From contig OX597836.1 of NCBI GenBank assembly GCA_951406725.2, positions 6,262,001 through 6,326,000 on the forward strand: a stretch of 64,000 nucleotides of DNA, written 5' to 3'. Source of the stretch: Octopus vulgaris (taxonomy: Eukaryota). A model generated the notes under the pieces. The model was not told where the DNA came from. It made no database searches and saw only the letters and a list, made by a program, of their open reading frames with translations. This document shows, piece by piece, positions 8,832 through 40,082 of this stretch; position 1 is the stretch's first letter; each line of letters opens with the position of its first letter. Position numbers and translations under genes: made by a program.

Positions 8832-10859
8832 CGATCTTTGTGTTTGTGTGTGTAAACGATCTTGGTTATGTGGTAAGTGTCTTGCTTCCCAACCACATGG
8901 CTCCAGGTTCAGCCCCACTGCGTAGCCGACCAAGCCTTGTGAATGGATTTGGTAGACGGAAACTGAAAGCCCGTCGTATGTGTGTCTGTGTTTGTCCCCC
9001 CTACCATCACTTACTTGACAGCTGATGTTGGTGTCTTTACTTCTCCGTGACTTAGCGGTTCGGTAAAATTGACCGATGGAATAAGTACTAGGCTTACAAA
9101 GAATAAGACCTGTAGTCGATTTGTTTGACTAAAGGCTGTGCTGCAGCATGGCCGCAGTTAAAATATCAACCTTCCAGGCTTGATATTTTAAGTACCAGTG
9201 CAATACTGGTATCGATGTAATCAACTAGTCCCTTTCCCCAAAAATTCTAGGCCTTGTGCCTATAGTAGAAAGGGTGATTATTATTATTATCATTATTATT
9301 ATTATTATTATCATTATTATTATTATTATTATTATCATTATTAAGGCGGTGAACAAGCAGAATCGTTACCACACTGGAACAATGCTTAGTGGGATTTCGT
9401 TCCGAATTCAAATTCTGCCGAGGTCGACTTTGCCTTTGATCCTTTCGAGGTCGATTAAATAAGTACCAGTTACGCACTGGGGGTTGATGTAGTTGACATA
9501 ATCCATTTGTTTGTCCTTGTTTGTTCCCTCTATGTTTAGTCCCCTGTAGGCAATAAAAAATAAATAATACATAGGTGCCGGCATGTTGCTTCCCAACCAC
9601 ATATTGTCGGGTTCAGTCCCACTGTGTGAAACCTTGGGTCAATGTCATCTAATATTACTCCGTGTCGACCATGCCTTGTGAGCACATTTGGTAGACGGAA
9701 ACTGAAAGAAGCCTGTCGTGTACATATATGCGTACGTGAGTATCCCGCTAGACTGCTTGACAACCCCTGTTGGTGTGTTAAGGCACCCGTAACCTAGCGG
9801 TTCGGCAAAAGAAGACCAATAGATTAAATACCAGGCCTTAAAAATACTTTCGCCAAGGTGGTGCTCCAGCATGGCCACGATCTAATGACTGAAACAAGAT
9901 AAACAAGAAATGGCCCAAGAACCTGACGGGTTGTATGTTTATTGACTCGGAAGAACTAAAGGCAGAGTTGACCTCAGCAGGTTTTGAACTCGGGACACTA
10001 CGACACGAAACAATTAGCCCGAGGACAAGGCATTTGGCCGACACTGTAAATATTCTGCCTTTTATAATAAGAAATCATAATTATCAAATTGTTGAGTAAT
10101 TGAATTCTTTGTAGCCCGATCGATCGATCGAACAATCAATCATTCAATTACCAAAAAAAATGGTGTCGAGCCAACGAGAGGGCCTGGACTTGTTTACTCG
10201 CCCAGCTAGAAACAGCAGCCAAACCTCCATCAAATAACAATAATACTTTAATGTGTTTTAAAGAAAAACATTGGTTCAAATCGTCCTAATCCTCCATTCT
10301 TCTTTATGTTTTGATTATATAATCCAACGGAGCGATCCCAGGATTTCCTTATCAAATGGATGTACTGTCTACTTTAGACGATTCTGAATATTGCCTGTCA
10401 TTCGGTGGGGTTAGCCAAATCTGAATTATATCAGAGCGAGGATAAGGGGCCCTTTCGTATATATGTGTATATATGTGTGTGTGTTTGTGTGTCTGTCTCC
10501 CCAACATCGTTTGACAACCGATGCTGGTGTGTTTACGTCCGCGTAACTTAGCGGTTCGGCAAAACAGACCGATAGAATAAGTACTAGGCTTACAAAGAAT
10601 AAGTCTTGGGGGTCAATTTGCTCGACTACGCAAAACTTAATTTCGATCAACGCATCTCATGGTTATGAGCCCAGAACTCTTTCTCAACGAGAAAGTATAT
10701 ATAATGAGTCGGTTATCTTATGTCCACAATTATCTTTACAATATGAAGTATTTAGAAGAAATGGGGATCACTTCGAGTGTACTGGAAAACATAGCCAAAT
10801 AAACCCACATTAGGTTGCATTGGGTGCTGAGTTAGCGTTTTTTTCCGAATTTTGCAGAC

Positions 10860-11325
10860 TGTAAAGACAGATGGACAGATTGTAAAGGTAATTTATGGAC
10901 ACTTTGTAAAGGTAATTTATGGACACTTTGTAAAGACAATTTATGGACACTTTGTAAAGACAATTTATGGACACTTTGTAAAGACAATTTATGGACACTT
11001 TGTAAAGACAATTTATGGACCTTTGTAAAGACAATTTATGGACACTTTGTAAAGACAATTTATGGACACTTTGTAAAGACAATTTATGGACACTTTGTAA
11101 AGACAATTTATGGACACTTTGTAAAGACAATTTATGGACAACATATATCTTATCTATGCATTGGACTGTGTCAAACGTATGAAATATTGTAACTCCACAA
11201 TATTAGTCCAAGAGTCACAATTTATGGACACTTTGTAAAGACAATTTATGGACAACATATCTATGCATTGGACTGTGTCAAACGTATGAAATATTGTAAC
11301 TCCACAATATTAGTCCAAGAGTCAC
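10860..11325. repeat. 24-bp minisatellite (GGACACTTTGTAAAGACAATTTAT, about 11 copies) plus a tandem duplication of about 110 bp
   Basis: Unit visible from about 10870 to 11140. The block tctatgcattggactgtgtcaaacg...agagtcaca occurs twice (about 11150-11219 and 11260-11326). Confidence 0.95.
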
Positions 11326-11435
11326 ATTTTACAAATCCCATGCGAAAATTTCTTCACTTTTCTCTCTCTTCATTATCTCTCTTATCAGAGAGCAATCGAT
11401 CTCGCTAGTCTGTTCTTAAAATTATAGAACCTTAC

Positions 11436-11646
11436 CTTAGTGACACTGTGAGCAAATATCTTGTTGCACTTGGCCAGTTTCCTTATGTCCCAGATGTTCA
11501 CCACACCGTCGTCGCCACCACTAGCGAGGTAGTATTCGCTCGGTGAGAACTTCAAGTTGAGGACTGATCTGTGTCGCCCTACGTAGGTAACCAGCTCTGT
11601 CGGTTGTCGCTCGTCGTGCAAACAAATGTTGCCAGCCATTGAACCA
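11436..11646 (-). CDS. Cdc20-like exon 5 (WD40 repeats 3-4); the gene should continue toward lower coordinates
   Basis: tttcctctcag|T...CTAAG|GTAAGG, 211 nt, phase 2 to 0. SGSMAGNICLHDERQ...HRSVLNLKFSPSEYYLASGGDDGVVNIWD...HSVTK aligns with SGSRSG.I..HDVR...LASGGNDN.V.VW...H..AVK. Confidence 0.93.
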
Positions 11647-12615
11647 CTGAGAGGAAAAACAAAAAGCAAATATTTTATTGTTCAATCGTTTCGGTTACTG
11701 GACTGCGGCCATGCTGGGGCACCGCTTTGAAGGGTTTAGTCAAACTAATTGACCCCAATACATATTTCCAGTTTAAGTCAGATTCTTGTAGGGCCCTTTT
11801 GAGGAACCACTAAGGTATGGGACAAGAAAACACTAACACCAGTTGTTGTCGTAGGGATGGGGTGTAAATACACACAAGTGTATATATATGTGTGTGTGTG
11901 TGTGTGCTTGCAAGTAATAGACATGCATACTTACGTTACGTATTCGGTAATCAGACAGTTGTTTGATAAAATGGTAAACCGTAGAACAGACATAACATAC
12001 TCTAACCCAAGTATATCCATGTGTGTGTGTGTGTGTATGTGTGTGAGCTTATGAACGTGTGTGATCGTATGTGTGAACGTGTGTGTGAACGTGTGTGAAC
12101 GCGTGAGCGTGTGCGCCCGAGTGCGTGCGCCCGAATGCGTGTGTACACAAATGAAAAATTGTTTCTGTGCCAAATATGTGCAGTCACATTGTGCGTCTTC
12201 CAAACCTTTACAAAGTGTCCATAAATTTCCTTTACAAAGGGTCTTTGCAGAGAAGCACAAGCACACCTTTGATGCATGTCTGAGAAAATGCCTCTCTAAT
12301 GTCTAAAACAGTTGGTACAGAAACACCTGTAATGAATCATTAAAGACGATTCGGGGTCGATAAATTAAGTACCAATGAAACATTGGGGTCAATGTAATCC
12401 GTTAGCTCCCTCCCCACGAATTTCTGGACTTGTTATCTCTACCTTTATTTTAATACGGATCGGTGGTAGAGATAAAATTACTTCTGCGGTCGATGAATTT
12501 GGTACCAGTTTTATACTGGGGTCGACTAAATCATCTAAACCTCCTCCTCTACTAAACGTGCGTGACCTTGTATCCCATACTAGAAATCATTACTGGTTGT
12601 TTCCCTTATCTTTTT

Positions 12616-15620: not shown

Positions 15621-15816
15621 CTATAAAAAAATATAAAATATATATAATGTGCAGGACTGGCTGTGTGGTAAGTAGCTTGCTTCCCAACCACATGGTTCCA
15701 GGTTCAGTCCCACCGCGTGGCACCTTGGGCAAACTATAAGCTCGTGTCCGTCGTGTATGTGTGTGTGTGTGTGTATATATATATATGTGTGTGTATATAT
15801 GTGTCCGTCGTGTATG

Positions 15817-15896
<80 letters not shown>

Positions 15897-16057
15897 TTAC
15901 ACACAAAATTTAAAGGACTGACCACTAAAAGTGGACGGTCAACATGCTAGATATAGACGTCAAAATCGCTATTTTCCACGAAGAATGTGGAAGACGTCTA
16001 TATCTAGCATGTTGACCGTCCACTTTTAGTGGTCAGTCCTTTAAATTTTGTATGTAA
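15897..16057. repeat. Inverted repeat with 59-bp perfect arms and a 31-nt spacer
   Basis: 15903-15961 is the reverse complement of 15993-16051. Confidence 0.92.
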
Positions 16058-16599
16058 AAATATTTTAATCTTCGGATTTCTTTAATATGCTAGGCCACTG
16101 GTTTTAATTTATTAATATCAATTTCAACCCTTATTCAATGTTATATATATATATATATGTATGTTATATATATATATATATAAAATCCCCATATCCCCCC
16201 CACACACACACCACACCTACACACACTAACCACTTCCCAGCACCAACAGCATGCACCATCATCTGCACACCCACACGCCATCATCCACACATCCACACGT
16301 TACAGACGCACACACATACACACATCCACACACATTCGTTTTGGGATCACCAATACTTTATCGACCGGAAGGATATTCCGTCGCAGTTGTACCCAAAATG
16401 AGTAACGTGAAATGAATTGTTTTGCTCAAGAACACAACGCGCTACCTGCTCTTGGAATCGAACCCACGATCAAGCAACAGTGAGTGCAATAGCTTGACCA
16501 CTAAGCCATGCACCGTCATCCTAAAATCCTTATACTGAAAGAAAAAAGATATGAGAGAGAAAGAGACTAAAATATAACCGCTGTATTGATTTATTCAAG

Positions 16600-16718
16600 G
16601 CTTGCGTGTTCGTTACTCGAGACACCGTTCGTCACCCGAGACGCTTAATGTTCTAAAAACTGTTCGTAAACCGATTTGTTCGTTGTGAGAGGCGTTCGTA
16701 AACCGAGGTTCCACTGTA
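16600..16718. mobile_element. Tigger/pogo-like TIR remnant
   Basis: Ends GTTCGTAAACCGAGGTTCCACTG|TA (reverse complement CAGTGGAACCTCGG) with subterminal gttcgta repeats. Partner TIR not seen. Confidence 0.5.
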
Positions 16719-18269
16719 GCAAAATTCTACTTTTGTTTTTGACCTTTTAGTATTTTTAATCCGTTAATCTTATATTCCAAAACACGTTTCGTCAATTCTT
16801 GCTAGAAATATTAAATTTTTCTAAGTTAAAAGTTATTTAACACTTTTATTTTTCCGTTTGTTTTTGGGGTGTTTTTGTGTTGTTTTTTTTTTTCATGAGA
16901 ATCGTGGCGGTAGAGTGTGATGCAGAATAGAAGAATGATATTTTCATTTATTAGAACAGTGAAAACAAAACAAAACAAATGACCACAATAATTGTAAGAC
17001 ACCATACTTGTTGATTAGCAAAGAAGTGAAAGCCGAGAGACTGGAAGCTTCCTGATAGCGACATAGGATCAAAGCCTTTCTCACAGAAACCTCCGAAAGC
17101 ATGGAATGAAACCGCATTCGCTAATCGTAGAACGTGGAGGAGATTCACAAATAATTAACCGCATTGTCTCTGGCTACTCAGTCTTTTTGTCTTTTGGGGG
17201 TGGGGTGAGCTGTTCGCCATTGGATTGCGGCCATGCTGGGGCACCGCCTTGAAGAATTTTTAGTCGAATGAATCGATCCAAATATTTGTCTGATTTTTTT
17301 TGCTTTGTTTTAGTCTTTGTTTTATATTATTTCAAGCCCGGTACTTTTTCTATCGATCCTTTTGCCGAACCGCTACCTTACGGGGACATAAACACAGCAA
17401 CACAGAGCGTCAAACGGTGGTGAGGCCCAAAGACACAAAGACACACAAACAGAGAGAGAAAGAGAGAGAGAAGACAGACAAGACGGGCTTCTTTCAGTTT
17501 CCGTCTACCAAATCCACTCACAAGGCTTTGGTCGGCCCGAGGCTATATTAGGAGACACTTGCCCAAGGTATCACGCTGTGGGACTGAACCCGGAACCATG
17601 TGGTTGCGAAGCAATCCTCTTACTACACAAATACGTCTGCGCCGAACAACAGAATAAAGAGTTTACGTGCATGGCAAAGTCGGGGGTTTTCATACACTAG
17701 AAATTAAACTGGTATTTTGAAATACCAATTCCAAGCCTCACAATTGCCTGGCCCAGCCCTTCCCCTCCAGATTGTCAGTCCTCTATAATATTCCTTCTGG
17801 TCAAGGATATGAGACATTTTGGCGCCGCCTATGTGGCGTCGCTGATTTGATATTGACTTGTAATCAGACTGGAGTAAAGATTGTTTGCCAACATAACATG
17901 ACAGTCCAGGTTTAGGACGAATGTTGCTGTAATTTTAGCCCCAGGAGACATCGTCTACAGCTGTCTATACGACACGATCTGTGTCCTTATATTTTCGAAC
18001 AAGGGAATCTAGCGCCCCCACTCAGTTCAAAACAATATCTGTGTATCGCCATTTCCGGGTTATTTCCCTTCATCAGACGTTTTACTGTTTCTCTCTCTCT
18101 CTCTCTATGAGCTTCTAGTCATGCTCGAATGCACGTGAGCATCTAGTTATACTCGCATGTGTGAGTGTGTGCATGTGTCTCTCCCTCCCTCACATTTCCT
18201 CTATCCGTACGCGTATACTACTTGGTGCGTGCACGTGTATGTACGTTTTTAGGTGTTTGCCTTTAATGT

Positions 18270-18575
18270 ACTGCAGCCGTGCCAAATTTCCAACGTCCAA
18301 ACAGCTGCGCCAAACTGCCAGCGCCCACATGCCTTATTCCACTGATCGTGCTCTTCCTACAGCCATCATCTTGGAGCTGCTCAAACTGACCAGCCACCAT
18401 CTTGATTTCTTTGGTCTCGATGGGATTATGAAGGCTACGAGCACAACACCTTCCGCCAGATCATATATGCGCACGTGCACGATTATCAACTGTGGCAATA
18501 AATCTATCCCGAATAAGTGGAAGTTGACATAAAAAATACACGATTTATCATCAACACCCACCAAACTTATCTAGA
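18270..18575 (+). mobile_element. Possible Penelope-like reverse transcriptase remnant
   Basis: PTAIILELLKLT...F.FFG...ATSTTPSARSY...PNKWK resembles the Penelope RT pattern ILELL...N.F.F...AMG...APSY...W.RY.DD, but is very degenerate. Confidence 0.4.
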
Positions 18576-19829
18576 ACAAGCTTGAGTAACACTTATATAA
18601 TAACAGACTCATTTCGAACAAAAAACCCTGCTTTTGTATTCCATCCTAGATTAAGGAAGCAAAAAGCAACGCACAAAGGAGAATTCAACATAAATAAAAC
18701 TATCAATACCTCGTGTTGTGAGCGAGTTAAACGATTTCCTCTACGCATGTATAGCCACAATAATAGAAGAATGCAGAGCTAAATAAACATCGTATTATTG
18801 CGAAGCATAGGAGTCACTAAGATAAAATAGACAAGTGGAAGAGTAGATTAAAGTGCAGAATATGCATTCGAGGTTACGGCGCAAGTAAAGCAATACAGAT
18901 GGCAGTTAATAAGCTTTCCAGAAGAATAAAGAAAGTATACATATATACCACGTGTGGAAAGTAAAAAAGGAAGATAATAAAGAAGCAAAATGGCTGCAAA
19001 CAACACTCGAATATTAAAAGACCAAAAAAAAAAAAAGAAAGAAAATCCGCGTTAAATAATAGATTAAAAAGGTAAAGCGTTAGGGAAAATTGGCTCACTA
19101 GAACAACAAGAATAGAGAAATATTGCCTTTGATAATAACCGCCAAAAAGATCTATACGACAATACGCGGTAGCAACATGGATGATAAGAACCCTCGATAA
19201 ACAAAAAGTGGAAATATTTGGGAAAGGTGGGTTTTTTTGGGGTTTTTTTTTTGAAAATGAAGAATACCGAAAAGCGATATTGGACAGAAAACTATACGGC
19301 ACGTTTGCGGCAGCTCTACATTAGCCGCCCCAACCGCCACCACAGTACAGCAATGGTTCCTGAATTGATCCAGCTTTACGTTAATGTATCTAGTTTCGGT
19401 CATTGAAATGCGGCCATGCTGGGGCACTATTTTGAAGTTTTTTTTTTTAAGTCGATGAGATCTACACCTGTACTTGTCTTTACAATTCTGATACTTATTC
19501 TATCGGACTATGTTGTCAGTCCGCTAAGTTACGGAGTTTGAAAACGAACCAGCACCGGTGGCCGAATGCCGACCCGTGACAGACAGGCGCAAAGGCACAC
19601 ATTCGTATATAAACATATACTCTCACACACACACATTCAAACGAACAAGTTTCCACAGTTTGTTTACCAAACACGCTCACAAAGCATTGGTTCGCTTGGA
19701 ACTATGACAGAATGCACTTGCTCAAGTTGACGCGCAGTGGGATTGAACCCGAAACTGTGTGGTTGCAAAACGTGCATCTTAAACACACAGCCACACCCGA
19801 GCCTATTAGGCCATGCCTGCGCCGCGCCT

Positions 19830-20130
19830 GTGTGGGAAAATCTGAAACGAAGATCCAGTCTTCCCCATCGAGAATAAGAACACAGTACTGCAATAATCTG
19901 GGTTTCAAGAGCCCGCAATTGTTCAACATCCTTCCAGACAACCTTAGAGATCTGCATGATGTTGATGTGGAAGTTTTCAAGGAATGTCTGGACAGGTTTC
20001 TATCTGAGATACCAGATGAACCCACATCGCGGCAGGAGACGGAAAGAGCAGCTCCGTCCAACTCGCTACCTCACCAAAAGCAATACCGGTAACAACACCG
20101 AGTAACTACTGGTGGGGCACCAGCATGACC
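19830..20130 (+). mobile_element. LINE ORF2 3' end remnant (CR1/L2/Crack-like)
   Basis: PQLFNILPDNLRDL...FKECLDRFLSEIPDEP...RAAPSNSL is a typical C-terminal LINE motif. Confidence 0.7.
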
Positions 20131-21652
20131 TCAGTAAAATATATATACCTCCTAATATAAATTTGAATGATGTTTCTCTGTTCGTTGCGTTTTTATGTCA
20201 GTTACCTCCTAGACCGTTGGTGCAAGGACTACGAAACTCAAACCAGCAACTCCCCTAACCCCAGGGAATGTCCTAAGGGGGTCTATTTTTTCAAGGACCG
20301 CCTAATTAGTATTCCACTACTCCCACCTATTTTTACTGAATTTTAAACTAAATACGTGGCACTGGCGACCAAATCGAAGCAATGACAATGAATTTCATAC
20401 CATGAACTCCCAGGGAGTATCGTAAGGAGGTTCAATTTCTGAAGGGCCGCTTAAATGGGGACCTACTGACTCCCTTATTTTTACTGCATTTACCTCGCCC
20501 CTACGCTTATTGATTAAACAATGGTCAGCATCAGTGCTTAGCACATTTGCAGAAATAAGTTTGAGCATTCTAAATACCTTCACGTACATTCAAATCGAGA
20601 TAAAGAGTTATAACAGGTACGTTTCAGGTGTGTCAGTGTGGATATTTATATTTGGTAGTTTATGAAACTTCGGTCTAATATAGAGTTGCCATGACTGATC
20701 GCTAAATCCACAAGTTTTTTTTTTTTTATTGTCTGTTCATTTTCTCGTATTCCTGTCTAAAGAGCGTAGGCTCGAAACATAAAAAACTTTCATTTTCCCA
20801 AGCATCAAACTAAAACACCTGCTTGTTATTCATACCCCTGTCTTCGTCTTTTGCTTTTCTGTAAATTTCTAGTGCATGTATGTATGTATGTATGTATGTA
20901 TGTATGTATGTATGTATGTATGTATGTATGTATATATACACACATACACACACACACACACGGAGGTATGTCTGTGTCATCTACCACCACTGCTTAACAT
21001 CCCCGTAACTTGGCTGTTCGGTAAAAACGACAAATAAAGTAAATACCAGGCTTCTTAAACGATAGGTGCTGGGATCGATTCGTTCAGCCAAAAATTCAAG
21101 GCGGTGCCCCAGCATGGTCGCAGTCTAATGACCGAAACAGGTAAACGTCAGTGTAATATTGGTTTGAAATTTTGGCACAGGTTCGGGGGAGGTGGTAAGT
21201 CAATTGTATCGACCCCAGTAGTTAAATGGTACTTATTTTATCGACCTCGATAGGACGAACGACTAAGTCGACCACGGCGGAATTTGAGCTTAGAATGTGA
21301 GACGGGTGAAATCCAGCTAAATAAAAGAGAACGTAGTATTGGTTTCAAATTTTGGAACAAGGCCAGCAATTTTGAGAGGAGGGGGTAAGTCAATTACATC
21401 GACCCCGGTAAGCAACTGGTACTTAATTTATCGACCTCGAAAGGACGAAAGGCAAAGTCGACCTCGGCGGAATTTGAACTCGGAGCGTAAAGACCGATGA
21501 AATGCTGCCAAGTAAAACAGACTGTAGAAATCTTGAGTGCACCGTGCCTAGAAACAATATGTATGGTCATGGGTGGAACGTCTTTGATCGTAAGATCTGA
21601 CAGTTCAGTGCTGGCCTGGAGCTAAGCAACAACAAGTGCTCGGCTATTTAAC

Positions 21653-21691
<39 letters not shown>

Positions 21692-23018
21692 AAACCCATT
21701 AAGACGGCCACAAACAACACAGCCGAATCTATAACAGCTAATTCCAAGCCATTGCTGCTGCCACTGCCGCTGCTGCTGCTATGGCAAGTTTCAGTTATTG
21801 ATCAATCTATGTAGACACCAGATCGAACAAAAAATCAATTTTTTCTATGGACAGTAAACCCGCTATCGGCATTCATGCTCATCTTCTAGGCCTTTATGTA
21901 AACTTCATTATTTACCAAAGTGCCAATACACAACGAGGGTTGTGAATAAATAAATATACCATCAACATATGGATCTGGTCTCGCTGAAAACAGTTTTTTC
22001 TTTGTTTCTCTCTCTCTCTCTCTCCATAAAGTCCTTTACTAAAATTAGTTTACCAAAAACAAAAAACTAGCACCAATTTTGTGCTGATGGTACACAAATT
22101 AAGGCAAGACATCTGTTATTATTTTCAACATTGTTTTCCCCTCCAAAACTCTTTTTCTTTCTTTCTTTCTTGTGATAATGTTTCTATTATTTTTATGCTA
22201 TATTTATAGCTGTTTTTTTTTTATAAGATTTTCTTTATAATTTTATATTTTTAAACATGATATCGTTATAATATTTTTATATACACGATTATTATTTATA
22301 TAAGATTGTATTTTCATATTTTTATACTTTTGTTTTTATTTTATACTTTATGTATTTAGTATTTTTTATAAATGCAATTTTTATATAAATTTATATTTAT
22401 AATTTTACCTATGTATTACATGCTATTTTTATACTTTTATATACAGTATATTTTTTATACATTTTTTATATATTTTTATATAGTATTTTATATTTGTATA
22501 TATGTTATATATATATATACACACACATATATCCTATATTTGTAAATGTGCTATTTTTATTTATAAGATTTTTATATTTTTATTTCCTAAGATTTTTATT
22601 TATGGTATTTACGTTTTTATAAACGCTATTTGTATTTTATAAGTATTTTATAAGATTTTTTATATATTTTTTTCATAAGACATTTATAAGAATATAGTTT
22701 TCTTATATTTTATACAATTGTTTTATATTTCTATCAATAGAATACGATCGAACTGTACAAGACAAAAAAAAAATCACTATGTATTTTCTGGAGGCTTTTT
22801 TGTTATTTTTTCCTTTATTCATCCGATATCAATTGTTTGTTTTGTCTTTTGTTTGCTTTTCTTTATTGTTGCTTAATGTTTTAAACATTTCCCAGTTATA
22901 CAGCAACAGATATCTTTTTAAGAAAGTCCTGCACTTAATCCATCCGTAATTTTATTCATCTACGGTCCATAGACGAAACGATTTCAACAAACCCTGACAA
23001 TAAAACGAAACTGAAGAC

Positions 23019-23074
<56 letters not shown>

Positions 23075-23504
23075 GATAACCAAAGCCTTATGCGTGAATT
23101 TGGTAGACGGAAACTGAAAGAAGCCCGTCGTATAAATTACTCTTTTACTCTTTTACTTGTTTCAGTCATTTGACTGCGGCCATGCTGGAGCACCGCCTTT
23201 AGTCGAGCAAATCGACCCCGAGACTTATTCTTTGTAAGACTAGTACTTTTTCTATCGGTCTCTTTTGCCTTGCCGCTAAGTGACGGGGACGTAAACACAC
23301 CAGCATCAGTTGTCAAGCAATGCTAGGGGGACAAACACAGACACACATATATACGACAGGCTTCTTTCAGTTTCCGTCTACCAAATCCACTCACAAGGCA
23401 TTGGTCGGCCCGGAGCTATAACAGAAGACACTCAGTGGGACTGATCCCGGAACCATGTGGTTGGTTAGCAAGCTACTTACCACACAGCCACTCCTGCGCA
23501 TATA

Positions 23505-23565
<61 letters not shown>

Positions 23566-23953
23566 ATGTTTGTATGTCTGTTTGTCCCCCTCCCCCAACA
23601 TCGCTTGACAACCGATGCTGGTGTGTTTACGTCTCCGTAACTTAGCGGTTCGGCAAAACAGACCGATGGAATAAGTACTAGGCTTACAAAGAAATAAGCT
23701 CTGGGGTCGATTTGCTCGACTAAAGGCGGTGCTCCAGCATGGCCACAGTCACATGACTGAAACAAAGTATATATGTGTGTTTGTGTGCATTTTTATTTAT
23801 ATATATATATATATACAGACATATACATATATATATATATATATATATACCGGAGTAAACACATAAATGTGAAACAAGGTGGAAAAAAGAGTACTCAAAT
23901 ACCAGGGGTAGAGTAATATGCTTTATTTAAAGCAGCAGAAAATTCAACAAAAT

Positions 23954-23991
23954 CTGTTACTCTGAGTTTCTCGTTGCCGTTCATCAGACAG
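23954..23991 (-). ncRNA. Minimal type I hammerhead ribozyme motif, minus-strand copy (sense to the Cdc20-like pre-mRNA)
   Basis: Exact reverse complement of 24003-24040. Followed on the minus strand by AATAAA (23927-23922). Confidence 0.7.
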
Positions 23992-24002
23992 TTTAGCAAA
24001 AA

Positions 24003-24040
24003 CTGTCTGATGAACGGCAACGAGAAACTCAGAGTAACAG
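24003..24040 (+). ncRNA. Minimal type I hammerhead ribozyme motif (Penelope-associated type), plus-strand copy
   Basis: CTGT (stem I), CTGATGA, a-CG-GCAA-CG-a (short stem II), GAAA, palindromic stem III ACTC-A-GAGT, GTA cleavage triplet (24034-24036), ACAG (stem I partner). Confidence 0.7.
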
Positions 24041-24147
24041 ATTTTGTTAACTTTTCTGCTGCTTTAAATATATATATATATACACACACACACGCCTATA
24101 TACACGAATATATACACGCATATATAATGATGTACTATAATACTTAC

Positions 24148-24285
24148 AGATGTCATCTCGTAGGCCAGGCATGTCTAAGACCCGTGACGGACTTGTAATT
24201 AACTTTCGCTTTTTTCGTTTTGGTGATGAGAAGAAAACGTCATCGACATCGACTTGCCATGGCGGGGAACTGACGGAGCTTCTTC
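24148..24285 (-). CDS. Cdc20-like exon 2 (absent from the ORF track)
   Basis: Acceptor ttttttatag|GA, donor ATCT|GTAAGT, 138 nt, phase 1 to 1. Translates RRSSVSSPPWQVDVDDVFFSSPKRKKRKLITSPSRVLDMPGLRDDI(Y), matching the Cdc20 motif P.RILDAP.l.dDYY. Confidence 0.92.
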
Positions 24286-24399
24286 CTATAAAAAAAAAAT
24301 AATAATAATAAATGCAGATTTATTCAATCGGGAGTTATATTGTTTAACAAACGGAAAGGAGTGAGGACGAGGGTTTTTTGCCCCACAAATCAGTCCTAC

Positions 24400-24792
24400 T
24401 TGAGGAAACGTTTGTTTGTTTGTTTGTTTGTTGAGCGAAGCGGTCTTCGTCGCAGAGTGGGAGAAGTCCGAAACGTGGTCCTTTGCCATTCGTAAGACCC
24501 GCAGAAGAGAAAGCAGGTCAACCCCCGACACCGAGAGCATCGACGGATGGATGAGTGCGCATCCAGGCTCAGCGATTGCGTAGCGTAAGAAGTCGGGGAC
24601 AAGAAACAGGAAGAAAGAGTGAGAGAATGTTGGAGCGACAGAGTACAACAGGGGTCGCCACCACCCATTGCCGGAGCCCCGTGGAGCTTTAGGTGTTTTT
24701 GCTCAATAAACACACAACGCCCGGTCTGGGAATCGAAACTGCGATCCTCCGACCGCGAGTCCGCTACCCTAACCACTGGGCCATTGCGCCTC
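24400..24792 (-). mobile_element. tRNA-derived SINE family C
   Basis: Minus strand ggcgcaatggcccagtggttagggtagcggactcgcggtcgg...gtttcgattcccagaccgg with an (AAAC)n tail. Related copies at 32478-32770(+), 33380-33520(-) and 51525-51800(+). Confidence 0.8.
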
Positions 24793-34645: not shown

Positions 34646-35321
34646 CATTATCCAGTATGACTTTTCGTAAAGTGTGATTTAAAGGAAGATTTGACTGCTG
34701 TTTCTAACAGCTCCATCGACCACATAGAGTCTTGTGAAATCGCTTGTGCAGATTCTCCATGTTTTTGCTGCTGATGTTGTTCGATCATGTTCGAGCAAAT
34801 CTATGAACAAAAGCGTTCCAGCCGTGACCATCCCATATTGTATTCAAGCACTGTATATCTAAGACTATACATTATCGTATACGTTCTTTCTTTCAAACGG
34901 TAAACGGTTGGGTACGATTAGCAAAACGTTTGACTGCTCTTTCTAGCAGGTCAAGCAACCACACAGTGACTCGTTATTGTTGTTGTTGTTATTGTTGTGG
35001 CCGCTGCGGATGCTATTGTTTAATTTCGGATCAGCCTTTCTCGCGTTAACCTATGACCAAAGGCGTTCCAGCTGTGACCATCCCGTATTTTTGGGGGGTT
35101 TTTTTTTTCGCTGTGCAGAGAGAATCCACCGCCACATTATGCAAGAGGAGCAGGCGCGGCTGTGGTGTTACGAAGCTCGCTTTGCGACCGTGGGGTTTCG
35201 GGTTCGGATTCAGTCCCGCAGGGTAACACCTTGGGCCAGTGGCCCCTGTTATAGCTTCGGACCGACCCAGGGCCATGTGAGTGGATTTGGTAGACTGAAA
35301 CCCTGTGCAATCATGTTATGC

Positions 35322-35560
35322 ACACATACATACATACATACATATACATACATACATACATACATACATACATACATGCATACATACATACATACATACA
35401 TACATACATACATACATACATACATACATACATACATACATACATACATACATACATACATACATACATACATACATACATACATACATACATACATACA
35501 TACATACATACATACATACATACATACATACATACATACATACATACATACATACATACA

Positions 35561-35592
<32 letters not shown>

Positions 35593-35660
35593 CATATACA
35601 TACATACATACATACATACATACATACACACACACATACATACATACATACATACATACA

Positions 35661-35692
<32 letters not shown>

Positions 35693-36018
35693 CATACATA
35701 CATACATACATACATACAAACATATATACATACATACATACATACATACATACATACATACATACATACATACATACATACATACATACACACATACATA
35801 CATACATACATACATACATACATACATACATACATACATACATACATACATACATACACACATACATACATACATACATGCATACATACATACATACATA
35901 CATACATACACACATACATACATACATACATACATACATACATACATACATACATACACACATACATACATACATACACACATACATACATACATACATA
36001 CATACATACATACATACA

Positions 36019-36050
<32 letters not shown>

Positions 36051-36272
36051 CATACATACATACATACATACACACATACATACATACATACATACATACA
36101 TACATACATACATACATACATACATACATACATACATACATACATACATACATACAAACATATATACATACATACATACATACATACATACATACATACA
36201 TACATACATACATACATACATACATACACACATACATACATACATACATACATACATACATACATACATACA

Positions 36273-36304
<32 letters not shown>

Positions 36305-36334
36305 CATACATACATACATACATACATACATACA

Positions 36335-36366
<32 letters not shown>

Positions 36367-36695
36367 CATACATACATACATACATACATACATACATACA
36401 TACATACATACATACATACATACATACATACATACATACACACATACATACATACATACATGCATACATACATAATACATACATACATGCATACATACAT
36501 ACATACATACATACATACATACATACATACATACATACATACATACATACATACATACATACATACATACATACATACATACATACATACATACATACAT
36601 ACATACATACATACATACATACATACATACATACATACATACATACATACATACATACATACATACACACACACATACATACATACATACATACA

Positions 36696-36727
<32 letters not shown>

Positions 36728-37075
36728 CATACATACATACATACATACATACAAACATATATACATACATACATACATACATACATATACATACATACAT
36801 ACATACATACATACATACACACATACATACATACATACATACATACATACATACATACATACATACATACATACATACATACATACATACATACATACAT
36901 ACATACATACATACATACATACATACACACATACATACATACATACACACATACATACATACATACATACATACATACATACATACATACATACATACAT
37001 ACATACACACATACATACATACATACATACATACATACATACATACATACATACATACATACATACATGCATACA

Positions 37076-37107
<32 letters not shown>

Positions 37108-38185
37108 CATACATACATACATACATACATACATACATACATACATACATACATACATACATACATACATACATACATACATACATACATACATACATAC
37201 ATACATACATACATACATACATACATACATACATACATACATACATACATACATACATACATACATACATACATACATACATACATACATACATACATAC
37301 ATACATACATACATACATACATACATACATACATACATACATACATACATACATACATACATACATACATACATACATACATACATACATACATACATAC
37401 ATACATACATACATACATACATACATACATACATACATACATACATACATACATACATACATACATACATACATACATACATACATACATACATACATAC
37501 ATACATACATACATACATACATACATACATACATACATACATACATACATACATACATACATACATACATACATACATACATACATACATACATACACAC
37601 ATACATACATACATACATACATACATACATACATACATACATACATACATACATACACACATACATACATACATACATACATACATACATACATACATAC
37701 ATACATACATACATACATACATACATACATACATACATACATACATACATACATACATACATACATACATACATACATACATACATACATACATACATAC
37801 ATACATACATACATACATACATACATACATACATACATACATACATACATACATACATACATACATACATACATACATACATACATACATACACACATAC
37901 ATACATACATACATACATACATACATACATACATACATACATACATACATACATACATACATACATACATACATACATACACACATTCATACATACATAC
38001 ATACATACATACATACATACATACATACATACATACATACATACATACATGCATACATACATACACACATACATACATACATACATACATACATACATAC
38101 ATACATACATACATACATACATACATACATACATACATACATACATACATACATACATACATACATACATACATACATACATACA

Positions 38186-38217
<32 letters not shown>

Positions 38218-38303
38218 CATACATACATACATACATACATACATACATACATACATACATACACACATACATACATACATACATACATACATACATACAA
38301 ACA

Positions 38304-38335
<32 letters not shown>

Positions 38336-38604
38336 CATACATACATACATACATACATACATACATACATACATACATACATACATACATACATACATAC
38401 ATACATACATACATACATACATACATACATACATACATACATACATACATACATACATACATACATACATACATACACACATACATACATACATACATAC
38501 ATACATACATACATACATACATACAAACATACATACATACATACATACATACATACATAATACATACATACATACATACATACATACATACATACATACA
38601 TACG
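35322..38604. repeat. (TACA)n tetranucleotide array, about 3.3 kb
   Basis: Directly visible. It produces the spurious HTYI/MYVC ORFs of more than 1000 aa. Confidence 0.98.
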
Positions 38605-40082
38605 TACCCTGTTGCTGATGTTGAAATTCCAATGATAAATTAAGTACCAGTTGCGTACTGGGGGTTGATTCAATCAACTGACCCCCCACTCCCCAACAAA
38701 TCTCAGGCCTTGGGGCCGGAGTAGAAAAGAACATTTCAGTCAGTGCAAATCAGGCAGGGGAGACAACTTCAAATTTTCAGCTGGTGATTAATAAAAAAAA
38801 TCAAAAATCACTCCACGGAAATTTCACATAATTAACTCTGGAAATAAACATATGGTGAAGAAGTAATTAATGTCTTAACGATCTGTTTCTGTGATTATAT
38901 ATAAAATATAATAACATGTTTTGTCTCATGTGCTACCGTTGTGTCGTTACTGTGACGTAGTAATACTACGGAGCCAAATCTCTCGGACTTAGCCACGATA
39001 CGACGGATCCAGGTTTCACTGTCCACACGTTATGTAACGAGACAACGAGAGAGGAAGAATAGCACCGCTCCAAAAGCTAGAAATAATAGTGAAATTGCTA
39101 TCGAATCACGACCTGCTATACTTAAAAGCCATACGGATGGTCACGGCTGGAATGCGTCTACTGGATCTGAACTGCTTTGGAGTTAAGAAAGAATATATAG
39201 ATACACGAGACATTGTGCGAGCCGCTAAACGCTAGAAATAGCAAACAATTTCCCTCAAATTCAGACTGTTCATTTTATTTATTTTTATTTATTTAGGTTT
39301 TGGGAGGTCTTTTGCTTGTTTTGGGGGTCTTGTTTTGCGTCGCCGTGCGGCAAGAAGTTTGCCTCACAACTAACCACATGGTTCCAGGTTCAGTCCCACT
39401 TGGTTGTACCTTGGGCAAGTCTCTCCTTCTATAGTGATGGGCTGACGAAAGCCTGTGAGTGGATTTGGTATAAGGAAAGTGAAAGAATTCTACATAAACA
39501 CACACTCATACATACATACGTACATACATACATACATACATACATACATACAAACATACATACATACATACATACATACATACATACATACATACATACG
39601 GACGCATGTATGTGTTTGTCCACAACCACCAGCCGGTGCTGGTTTGTTTGCATCCTCGTAACCTAGCAGTGCGACGAAAGTGACCGATAGAATAAGTACC
39701 AGACTTTATGAACAAAATTAACTACTCGGGGGGGGGGGGCGACTTGTTCGACTAAACCTTTCAATGCGGTGCCCCAGCATGGCCGCAGACCGAAACAAGC
39801 CAAAGATAAACGATGGGATAAAATACAACTCGAACGATAAGCTCATTAGATAATTAACAACATCTTTTTTAATTAGTATGCGACTGGATCTTGGCGGACT
39901 TTGTAGTTGCTCGGTCTGCTAGACAGAATAGCCAGATTTCCCTCAAAATACATATCACTTGAGTTTAGAGTAAATAATAACAACAACAACAACGACGACG
40001 ACGACGTAGTATGGTGGTGGTGGTGGTGGTGGTGGTGGTGGTGGTGGTAGTAGTGGTGGTGGTTGTAGTTGTAGTAGTAATG

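Follow-up and report, generated by a model that had tools for sequence, protein, structure and literature searches.

Two hammerhead motifs that face each other in opposite orientations just inside intron 2 of an Octopus vulgaris gene belong, together with the AATAAA beside them, to a Penelope-like element (PLE) of the Hydra clade. We propose that they are what remains of a dead-end insertion of 221 bp, in which two ribozyme-bearing ends of the element lie head to head in a (TA)n tract, and that the insertion is likely neutral for its Cdc20-family host gene, a reading to which we assign a probability of roughly 0.87. For the host gene the hairpin is thus most likely of no consequence, and the wider interest lies in the element, as hundreds of near-identical head-to-head stumps in the genome record where reverse transcription started and stopped in vivo. 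Throughout the text, the window is the whole stretch of 64,000 nucleotides that was analyzed, and positions without a contig name are counted from its first letter.

The intron-2 hairpin and its host intron

The features discussed below are the following.

24148..24285, minus strand: 138-nt coding exon of the host gene (Cdc20 family), followed by the donor GTAAGT at 24147
15621..24147, minus strand: 8,527-nt host intron that holds 14 AATAAA in sense orientation and 10 pairs of inverted repeats, the intron-2 hairpin among them
23850..23994, minus strand: tailed arm of 145 nt, a pLTR 3' end that begins 3 nt ahead of helix I and runs to the second fixed end, 99% identity to other genomic copies
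23994..24070, plus strand: inverted short arm, from 9 nt before helix I to inside the AATAAA at (TA)n, with private substitutions at 24049 and 24051
23954..23991, minus strand: minimal type I hammerhead core on the gene sense strand, predicted cut between 23958 and 23957
24003..24040, plus strand: the same hammerhead core on the other strand, with its predicted cut between 24036 and 24037
23995..23999, no strand: head-to-head junction, which is the 5-nt loop, with 1-nt microhomology at 23994
23922..23927, minus strand: AATAAA carried by the PLE, 4 of 6 bases paired in the duplex end
23850..23915, minus strand: 'tail' of the PLE between its two fixed 3' ends, 66 nt, leading into the ORF in full-length copies
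23796..23849, no strand: left half of the (TA)n target tract, judged from sequence; the tract is empty in the exon-2 duplicate
24069..24082, no strand: right half of the (TA)n target tract, on the same grounds

The host gene lies on the minus strand and encodes a Cdc20/Fizzy WD40 protein, as two exon-bearing frames match Pfam WD40_CDC20-Fz and one exon shows 87% identity to a cuttlefish protein named CDC20. Splicing from 24148 to 15620 is in frame and gives DDIYTNILDW, and the numbering of 'exon 2' is consistent with a single C-box-like exon upstream, near 30273-30130 (a weak match, E 0.16). The last exons were located to the left of the window, and a genome search found the gene to be single-copy. 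More distant WD40 matches to cuttlefish CDC20, with 32-35% identity, lie at C28:28275318-28279438 and C28:12384828-12385127 and are probably other genes of the Cdc20/Cdh1 family. The window also holds a (TACA)n microsatellite array of 3.3 kb with long spurious open frames (about 35300-38640), and a tandem array of ~31-nt units near the WD40 exon 11433-11648, visible as repeated peptides (10810-11200 and 11930-12300).

The two arms of the hairpin, 23924-23994 and 24000-24070, are 71 nt long each and complementary at 69 of 71 positions, and the structure sits 77-225 nt inside the intron from the donor, so the sequence-only reading had placed it correctly just inside intron 2 of a Cdc20-like gene and had rightly noted an AATAAA on the gene sense strand. 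For the gene-sense strand, the computed fold has -120.5 kcal/mol (z -23.6), and none of 200 shuffles folded as well. Both differences between the arms are private to the short arm, neither being an A-to-G change on either strand, and a 31-mer private to the locus exists at the hairpin. Beside it, at 23072-23765, nested inverted pairs of another, SINE-like repeat are 84-92% complementary over up to ~200 nt and add further double-stranded RNA within the same intron.

A scan for type I hammerheads across all 64 kb returned exactly two matches, at 24003 on the plus strand and at 23991 on the minus strand, and the two copies lie 11 nt apart. Both read CTGT-CTGATGA-ACGGCAACGA-GAAA-CTCAGAG-TA-ACAG, with the CUGANGA and GAAA boxes, the UH cleavage site and helix I all present. 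The helix III palindrome is computed to form an intermolecular duplex of -7.4 kcal/mol, in keeping with the minimal type I motif with palindromic stem III that had been read from the letters, and the predicted cut at 23958 also stands. The description of the core as complete holds only in part: it does occur twice in inverted orientation, one copy per strand, but helix II consists of only 2 bp with a GCAA loop, and positions 10.1/11.1 form an A-A mismatch. Both copies thus lack the G10.1-C11.1 pair and the stable helix II of a minimal type I hammerhead, and an Rfam scan of the hairpin at E up to 10 gave no match to any hammerhead family; what it did list were look-alikes, hairpins and microsatellites that stayed under the gathering scores.

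Exon 2 has an inverted duplicate ~0.7 kb to the left of the window (24065-24792 against C23:6260616-6261333, 91% over 738 nt), with an uninterrupted (TA)n tract where the window carries the element. The far flank of the duplicate was compared with the left flank of the window, and only 2 of 1,559 control flanks matched as well. This flank is of low complexity, so the comparison is good but not perfect evidence that the duplicate retains the empty site. Because the duplicate appears to keep this empty (TA)n target, the insertion is probably young. At 0.0036 substitutions per site per million years, a rate quoted in PMC13282606, the two differences between the arms correspond to ~2.6 million years (95% range 0.3-9), giving a rough age of a few million years. 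The same source describes recently active Penelope families in Octopus vulgaris, its main text mentioning neither hammerheads nor Hydra. Contigs of other organisms and individuals stop short of bridging the microsatellites around the insertion.

The duplicate sits in a later intron of the same gene, ~25 kb away and inverted, and could pair with exon 2 in the pre-mRNA as an editing-complementary sequence or as an aid to back-splicing. Its exon differs at five sites, all of them third codon positions, and neither splice site is damaged, a pattern unexpected of a dead fragment. Alternatively, it is a misplaced haplotype, and a low-depth contig in one sequencing run (X2) may be this duplicate.

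The element family and the origin of its head-to-head ends

The tailed arm matches a dispersed repeat, with 548 candidates at first look and the best other copies 99% identical. The genome count proposed by the sequence-only reading gave 3,422 occurrences of the exact 38-nt hammerhead core (1,731 and 1,691; control 0), and older core variants with C at core position 4 gave another 1,781 matches. We rejected CpG decay as an origin of the intact core, since thousands of exact copies share it. Copies of the family are inserted in (TA)n and have two fixed 3' ends, one directly after AATAAAG and the other 66 nt beyond. AATAAA is present in every copy that was closely examined, and genomic copies end at or past it without poly(A).

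Full-length copies identify the element. L073 carries an inverted piece, a pLTR with tail, the ORF and a second pLTR, and pseudo-LTRs in partial tandem surround the ORF in L073, L143 and L144. The spacing of tandem cores gives a unit of 3,352 bp, with a 3' UTR of ~1.1 kb and an ORF that begins ~200 nt downstream of helix I. Open ORFs of ~710 aa in L143, L144 and L145 contain reverse transcriptase (RT) motifs and a GIY-YIG-like region, with an RWK motif and DKT instead of DKG. The CxCx5C linker is intact in L144, and its second C is replaced by F in L143 and L145. Read by eye, the endonuclease has no cysteines between the halves of the GIY-YIG core (no CCHH) and has CxxC and CxH near its C-terminus. 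Among protein-atlas neighbours of the ORF, a minority of members carry GIY-YIG and RVT_1, and the homolog P0023 carries PF01541. Of 7,992 candidates that were scored, 1,938 are relatives of the ORF, the top 120 of them having 43-58% identity, and a Pfam search with six ORF fragments gave no match. The Penelope-like origin suggested earlier is borne out by these coding copies. We placed the family in the Hydra clade by motif diagnostics and the published hammerhead table; the unit length exceeds the size described for this clade (<3 kb), which is a tendency and no diagnostic. The Neptune clade, suggested by the cysteine linker, was dropped once the Hydra diagnostics matched. A metazoan non-LTR retrozyme was also rejected, as the two hammerheads lie on opposite strands with no tandem same-strand units, and the family has coding full-length members.

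The three open-ORF copies among the 60 loci described below lie on contig C1 at 63-67 Mb, and the family may still be mobile. One of them, L144, consists of two full-length partial tandems arranged as a large palindrome. In older subfamilies core position 4 is C, not U, and 11.1 is T or G, and the youngest subfamily has the canonical U and the A-A mismatch; this drift of the core between successful subfamilies suggests weak selection on catalysis. We found no paper on the element family or on hairpin counts, and Repbase, Dfam or the library of PMC13282606 may name the family otherwise. The available text of a 2026 retrozyme preprint leaves cephalopods unmentioned.

Sister hairpins are abundant. 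A two-strand pattern, anchored downstream of the predicted cut on both arms, had 43 matches with gaps of 0-30 nt, 140 with 31-60, 669 with 61-90 and 239 with 91-120, and reversed controls had 0; on this scale, the gap of the intron-2 hairpin is 79. The short-loop form, with gaps of 61-120, accounts for 908 genome matches. We also inspected 60 consecutive insertion loci on contig C1 (the 2nd to the 61st of ~68 there, from the listing of exact cores) and found 23 tight hairpins and 15 longer inverted pairs, or 19 and 17 with stricter anchors. The hairpin layout of intron 2 is therefore the commonest insertion class of the family, its share of 23 in 60 being an upper estimate because selection by intact core favours two-armed, unedited copies. 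The idea that the locus is special did not survive these counts and the young age of the insertion, and the neutral insertion that had been named as a fallback is supported by the common layout and by the empty site in the duplicate. Future hammerhead searches in octopus should be read in this light, as they return thousands of transposon ends, many of them self-silenced by their own antisense arm.

Diverging pairs have a consistent makeup. One arm is tailed and the other short in 33 of 36 pairs (p 1e-7), as in the inverted pLTR copy at intron 2, where a tailed arm meets an inverted short arm. All of the 38 pairs carry the same lineage variant on both arms (25 A/A and 13 T/T), and because this variant is shared throughout, both arms appear to come from one source element. 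An older pair, L014:1501-1734, has arms that differ at several subfamily-diagnostic core positions, unlike young pairs, which could reflect two templates or later conversion.

The positions of the arm ends are also uneven. Of 99 ends, 25 fall 9-13 nt before helix I and only 2 fall at 14-17 nt. A further 28 arms ending at -18 and 19 ending at -40 or beyond were set aside, as these are long arms halted by differences from the reference copy and not true ends. Among the common ends, the one furthest out is the A of CCATTCT, which we take to fit an initiator consensus. A self-complementary CTAG lies inside this zone, and 17 of the first 50 loci of the 61-90 gap class are centred there (gap 84). 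There is no large pile-up at the predicted cut: by eye, an arm ends there in ~10 of the 43 loci of the 0-30 gap class, against the 908 matches at or upstream of helix I. These ~10 loci leave room for a minor class of hairpins made from cleaved template. That ends accumulate just before the ribozyme and away from the cut is in line with a template that is mainly uncleaved RNA.

Together, the tail-plus-short pairing, the common variants and the ends before the ribozyme point to run-off cDNAs made in pairs from a single source. We propose that the PLE endonuclease would cut both strands of a (TA)n tract, and that reverse transcription primed by each cut end would begin at either of two internal sites, after AATAAAG or after the 66-nt tail, with the RNA of one source element as template for both cDNAs. 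Both would then run through the uncleaved ribozyme and off the template near the RNA 5' end, ~13 nt before helix I, and be joined at microhomologies. The RNA 5' end at -13 is drawn from the junctions alone, and CTAG by itself could attract junctions.

A second arm could instead arise by fold-back, the first cDNA (or an antisense RNA) priming itself at the quasi-palindrome before helix I. This concerns only the origin step and would leave the element and the neutrality of the insertion as proposed. Copying of one arm from the other predicts the common variants in all 38 pairs, the junctions show a preference for the self-complementary CTAG, and palindromes of this kind at junctions were read as self-priming by Arkhipova et al. 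2013 (PMC3846280). However, fold-back alone gives no reason for the second arm to stop, in 33 of 36 pairs, at the other of the two fixed RT start sites, and it sits poorly with asymmetric junctions found in both tail/short orientations (L114 against L121, L123 against L140) and with long pairs of very unequal arm lengths. We hold it to be a possible but clearly less favoured route.

The junction of the intron-2 hairpin recurs at three other loci with unrelated flanks, and the orientation of tail and short arm is the same at 4 of 4. This, along with recurring gap lengths, is what one would expect if the hairpin were a non-autonomous mini-element (MITE-like or retrozyme-like) that propagates as a unit from a master hairpin. 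However, the window copy carries on both arms a lineage variant that differs from that of the other three loci, junctions are otherwise diverse and occur in both orientations, and there are no tandem hammerhead units as in retrozymes, making a self-propagating hairpin very improbable. Paired run-off cDNAs joined at microhomologies remain the origin that we prefer.

Consequences for the host gene

The duplex between the arms is computed at -116.7 kcal/mol and leaves helix I a probability of 6e-51 in unedited RNA, so the earlier prediction that the ribozyme would be locked in a 71-bp duplex agrees with the folding model. In either transcript of a head-to-head pair the antisense arm is transcribed first, and the ribozyme would thus be paired while it emerges. 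Because the hammerheads are predicted to stay locked in the duplex, the insertion is likely neutral. We propose that the 71-bp duplex forms in the pre-mRNA, that ADAR probably edits it as it does other repeat duplexes, and that it departs with the intron. Editing of the intron-2 duplex is plausible, and inverted Alu pairs are a familiar case of intronic inverted-repeat duplexes edited by ADAR. A search for A-to-G or T-to-C hypermutated copies flagged one weak case in 508 alignments from 157 loci, a sample chosen for intact cores and therefore of little weight for the genome as a whole.

The proposal that editing or unwinding gates cleavage fared badly. As a switch, it would free the hammerhead to cut the pre-mRNA at 23958, and it can point to intact catalytic nucleotides, helix I and palindromic helix III, which match a coral Hydra-clade hammerhead, to the pairing of helix III between two molecules (-7.4 kcal/mol), and to the 15 of 26 published Hydra-clade rows that also lack a Watson-Crick 10.1-11.1 pair. 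In simulations, however, helix I never forms: if each A in the antisense arm is treated as G its probability is 2e-44, and if these positions are unpaired it is at most 1e-29. Editing would also strike five core adenosines, and the one-nucleotide loop III requires a second ribozyme, with no other same-strand copy in the window. Even the isolated arm forms helix I at only ~1% and helix II with a probability of 0.08 (computed), and by this fold computation the motif does not fold as a monomer, as a co-opted intronic ribozyme of the CPEB3 type would. Helix II has 2 bp against 3 or more in the published Hydra-clade rows, metazoan minimal PLE hammerheads are described as inactive as monomers and weak as dimers (PMC4209133), and the anole hammerhead needed the protein of its element (PMC11167929). 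A ribozyme switch in the host pre-mRNA is thus extremely improbable. The motif may still function in the element's own RNA with the help of protein, because the 15 Hydra-clade rows also do without the Watson-Crick pair.

Polyadenylation within the intron at the AATAAA of the element, with the ribozyme uninvolved and with ADAR or opening of the duplex end as possible modulators, would weaken the gene by another route. The signal lies on the sense strand 220 nt past the donor (23927-23922) with U-rich sequence downstream, four of its bases are paired in the duplex end, and squid non-neuronal editing falls mostly in repeats of introns and 3' UTRs, as described in PMC9068888. Some premature polyadenylation there is possible, the signal being the first of its kind in the intron and followed by the U-rich stretch. 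However, the same intron contains 13 more AATAAA (7 expected by composition), the event would delete the whole WD40 domain of a single-copy gene, and the insertion is young and one of hundreds alike. The strong donor is close by, and such donors usually suppress proximal poly(A) sites (U1 telescripting). Copies also end at or past AATAAA without poly(A), so its use by the element itself is only putative. We therefore regard a weakening of the host gene in this manner as improbable, and the suggested gating of intronic polyadenylation loses its footing with a signal that the element brought along and that is one of 14.

A bolder version would make the young stump an editing-sensitive attenuator of the Cdc20-like gene, its half-buried AATAAA used or destroyed according to ADAR activity, with the ~900 sister hairpins as a standing supply of switches and double-stranded RNA; we consider this a long shot, somewhat less probable still. 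Gating of the host gene by the hairpin is unlikely overall, and a neutral dead-end insertion remains our reading of the locus.

Comparison with known systems

The closest relatives are the EN+ PLEs of the Hydra clade described in the text and tables of Craig et al. 2021 (PMC8557442), namely Hydra-2_Amil, Hydra-1_Obim and Penelope-13_HM, which have in common with the octopus element RWK, DKT, the CxCx5C linker and, at the C-terminus, a GIY-YIG. They likewise have CxxC and CxH around the final E and N with no CCHH, (TA)n targets, and a hammerhead near the 3' end (PMC8557442). In the hammerhead table of that paper, Hydra-2_aMil equals the window element in helix I, core, helix III arms and cleavage base, and Penelope-13_HM has an inverted copy with a hammerhead on both strands, like the intron-2 hairpin. 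The octopus element Hydra-1_Obim has a different hammerhead sequence; judged by sequence, the window element is a different family from it, and the hairpin layout as such has already been published for PLEs in general, where inverted copies truncated at their 5' end may or may not have a tail and paired minimal hammerheads lie on opposite strands. The window element further departs from the described elements in its unit (3.35 kb against <3 kb), its tail (66 nt against 30-40) and a helix II eroded to 2 bp; rows of the same table that lack the Watson-Crick 10.1-11.1 pair, as here, have longer stems (PMC8557442).

Minimal PLE hammerheads as described by Cervera and de la Pena 2014 (PMC4209133) are of type I with a short helix I and a palindromic helix III suited to dimers, as here. 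Close opposite-strand pairs in Schistosoma lie 100-700 bp apart, in contrast to 11 nt at the intron-2 hairpin, and have a helix II of 7-8 bp (PMC4209133), whereas the octopus motif has 2 bp and no G10.1-C11.1. The Schistosoma minimal hammerhead is reported there to be inactive as a monomer and weak as a dimer.

In squid, intronic inverted-repeat duplexes are edited by ADAR, and the text of PMC9068888 places ubiquitous editing mainly in introns and 3' UTRs overlapping repeats. The intron-2 hairpin is likewise a long, near-perfect intronic repeat duplex; its DNA copy in the window has no A-to-G footprint.

Penelope of Adineta vaga, as presented in Arkhipova et al. 2013 (PMC3846280), offers a precedent for the layout, with a head-to-head inverted pLTR, a tail on one end and a palindromic junction. 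There, few copies with target-site duplications are described (PMC3846280), whereas octopus has hundreds of ORF-less stumps in microsatellites, where duplications are unreadable.

For the mechanism, the best parallel is the Poseidon element PAc of Anolis (Frangieh et al. 2024, PMC11167929), for which the text reports in vitro that both strands are cut and extended, that two internal RT start sites bound the tail, and that uncleaved RNA is the main template. Its AT-rich targets and two start sites fit the tail-plus-short pairing seen in octopus (PMC11167929). PAc belongs to another clade and its ORF starts inside the hammerhead, not ~200 nt downstream of helix I, and its two-site priming was shown in vitro (PMC11167929), whereas that of the window element is read from DNA only. 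The tail-plus-short pairing (33 of 36) and the common variants (38 of 38) would be the expected trace of two-site, both-strand priming as in the anole element, and an open step of the PLE cycle thereby becomes testable.
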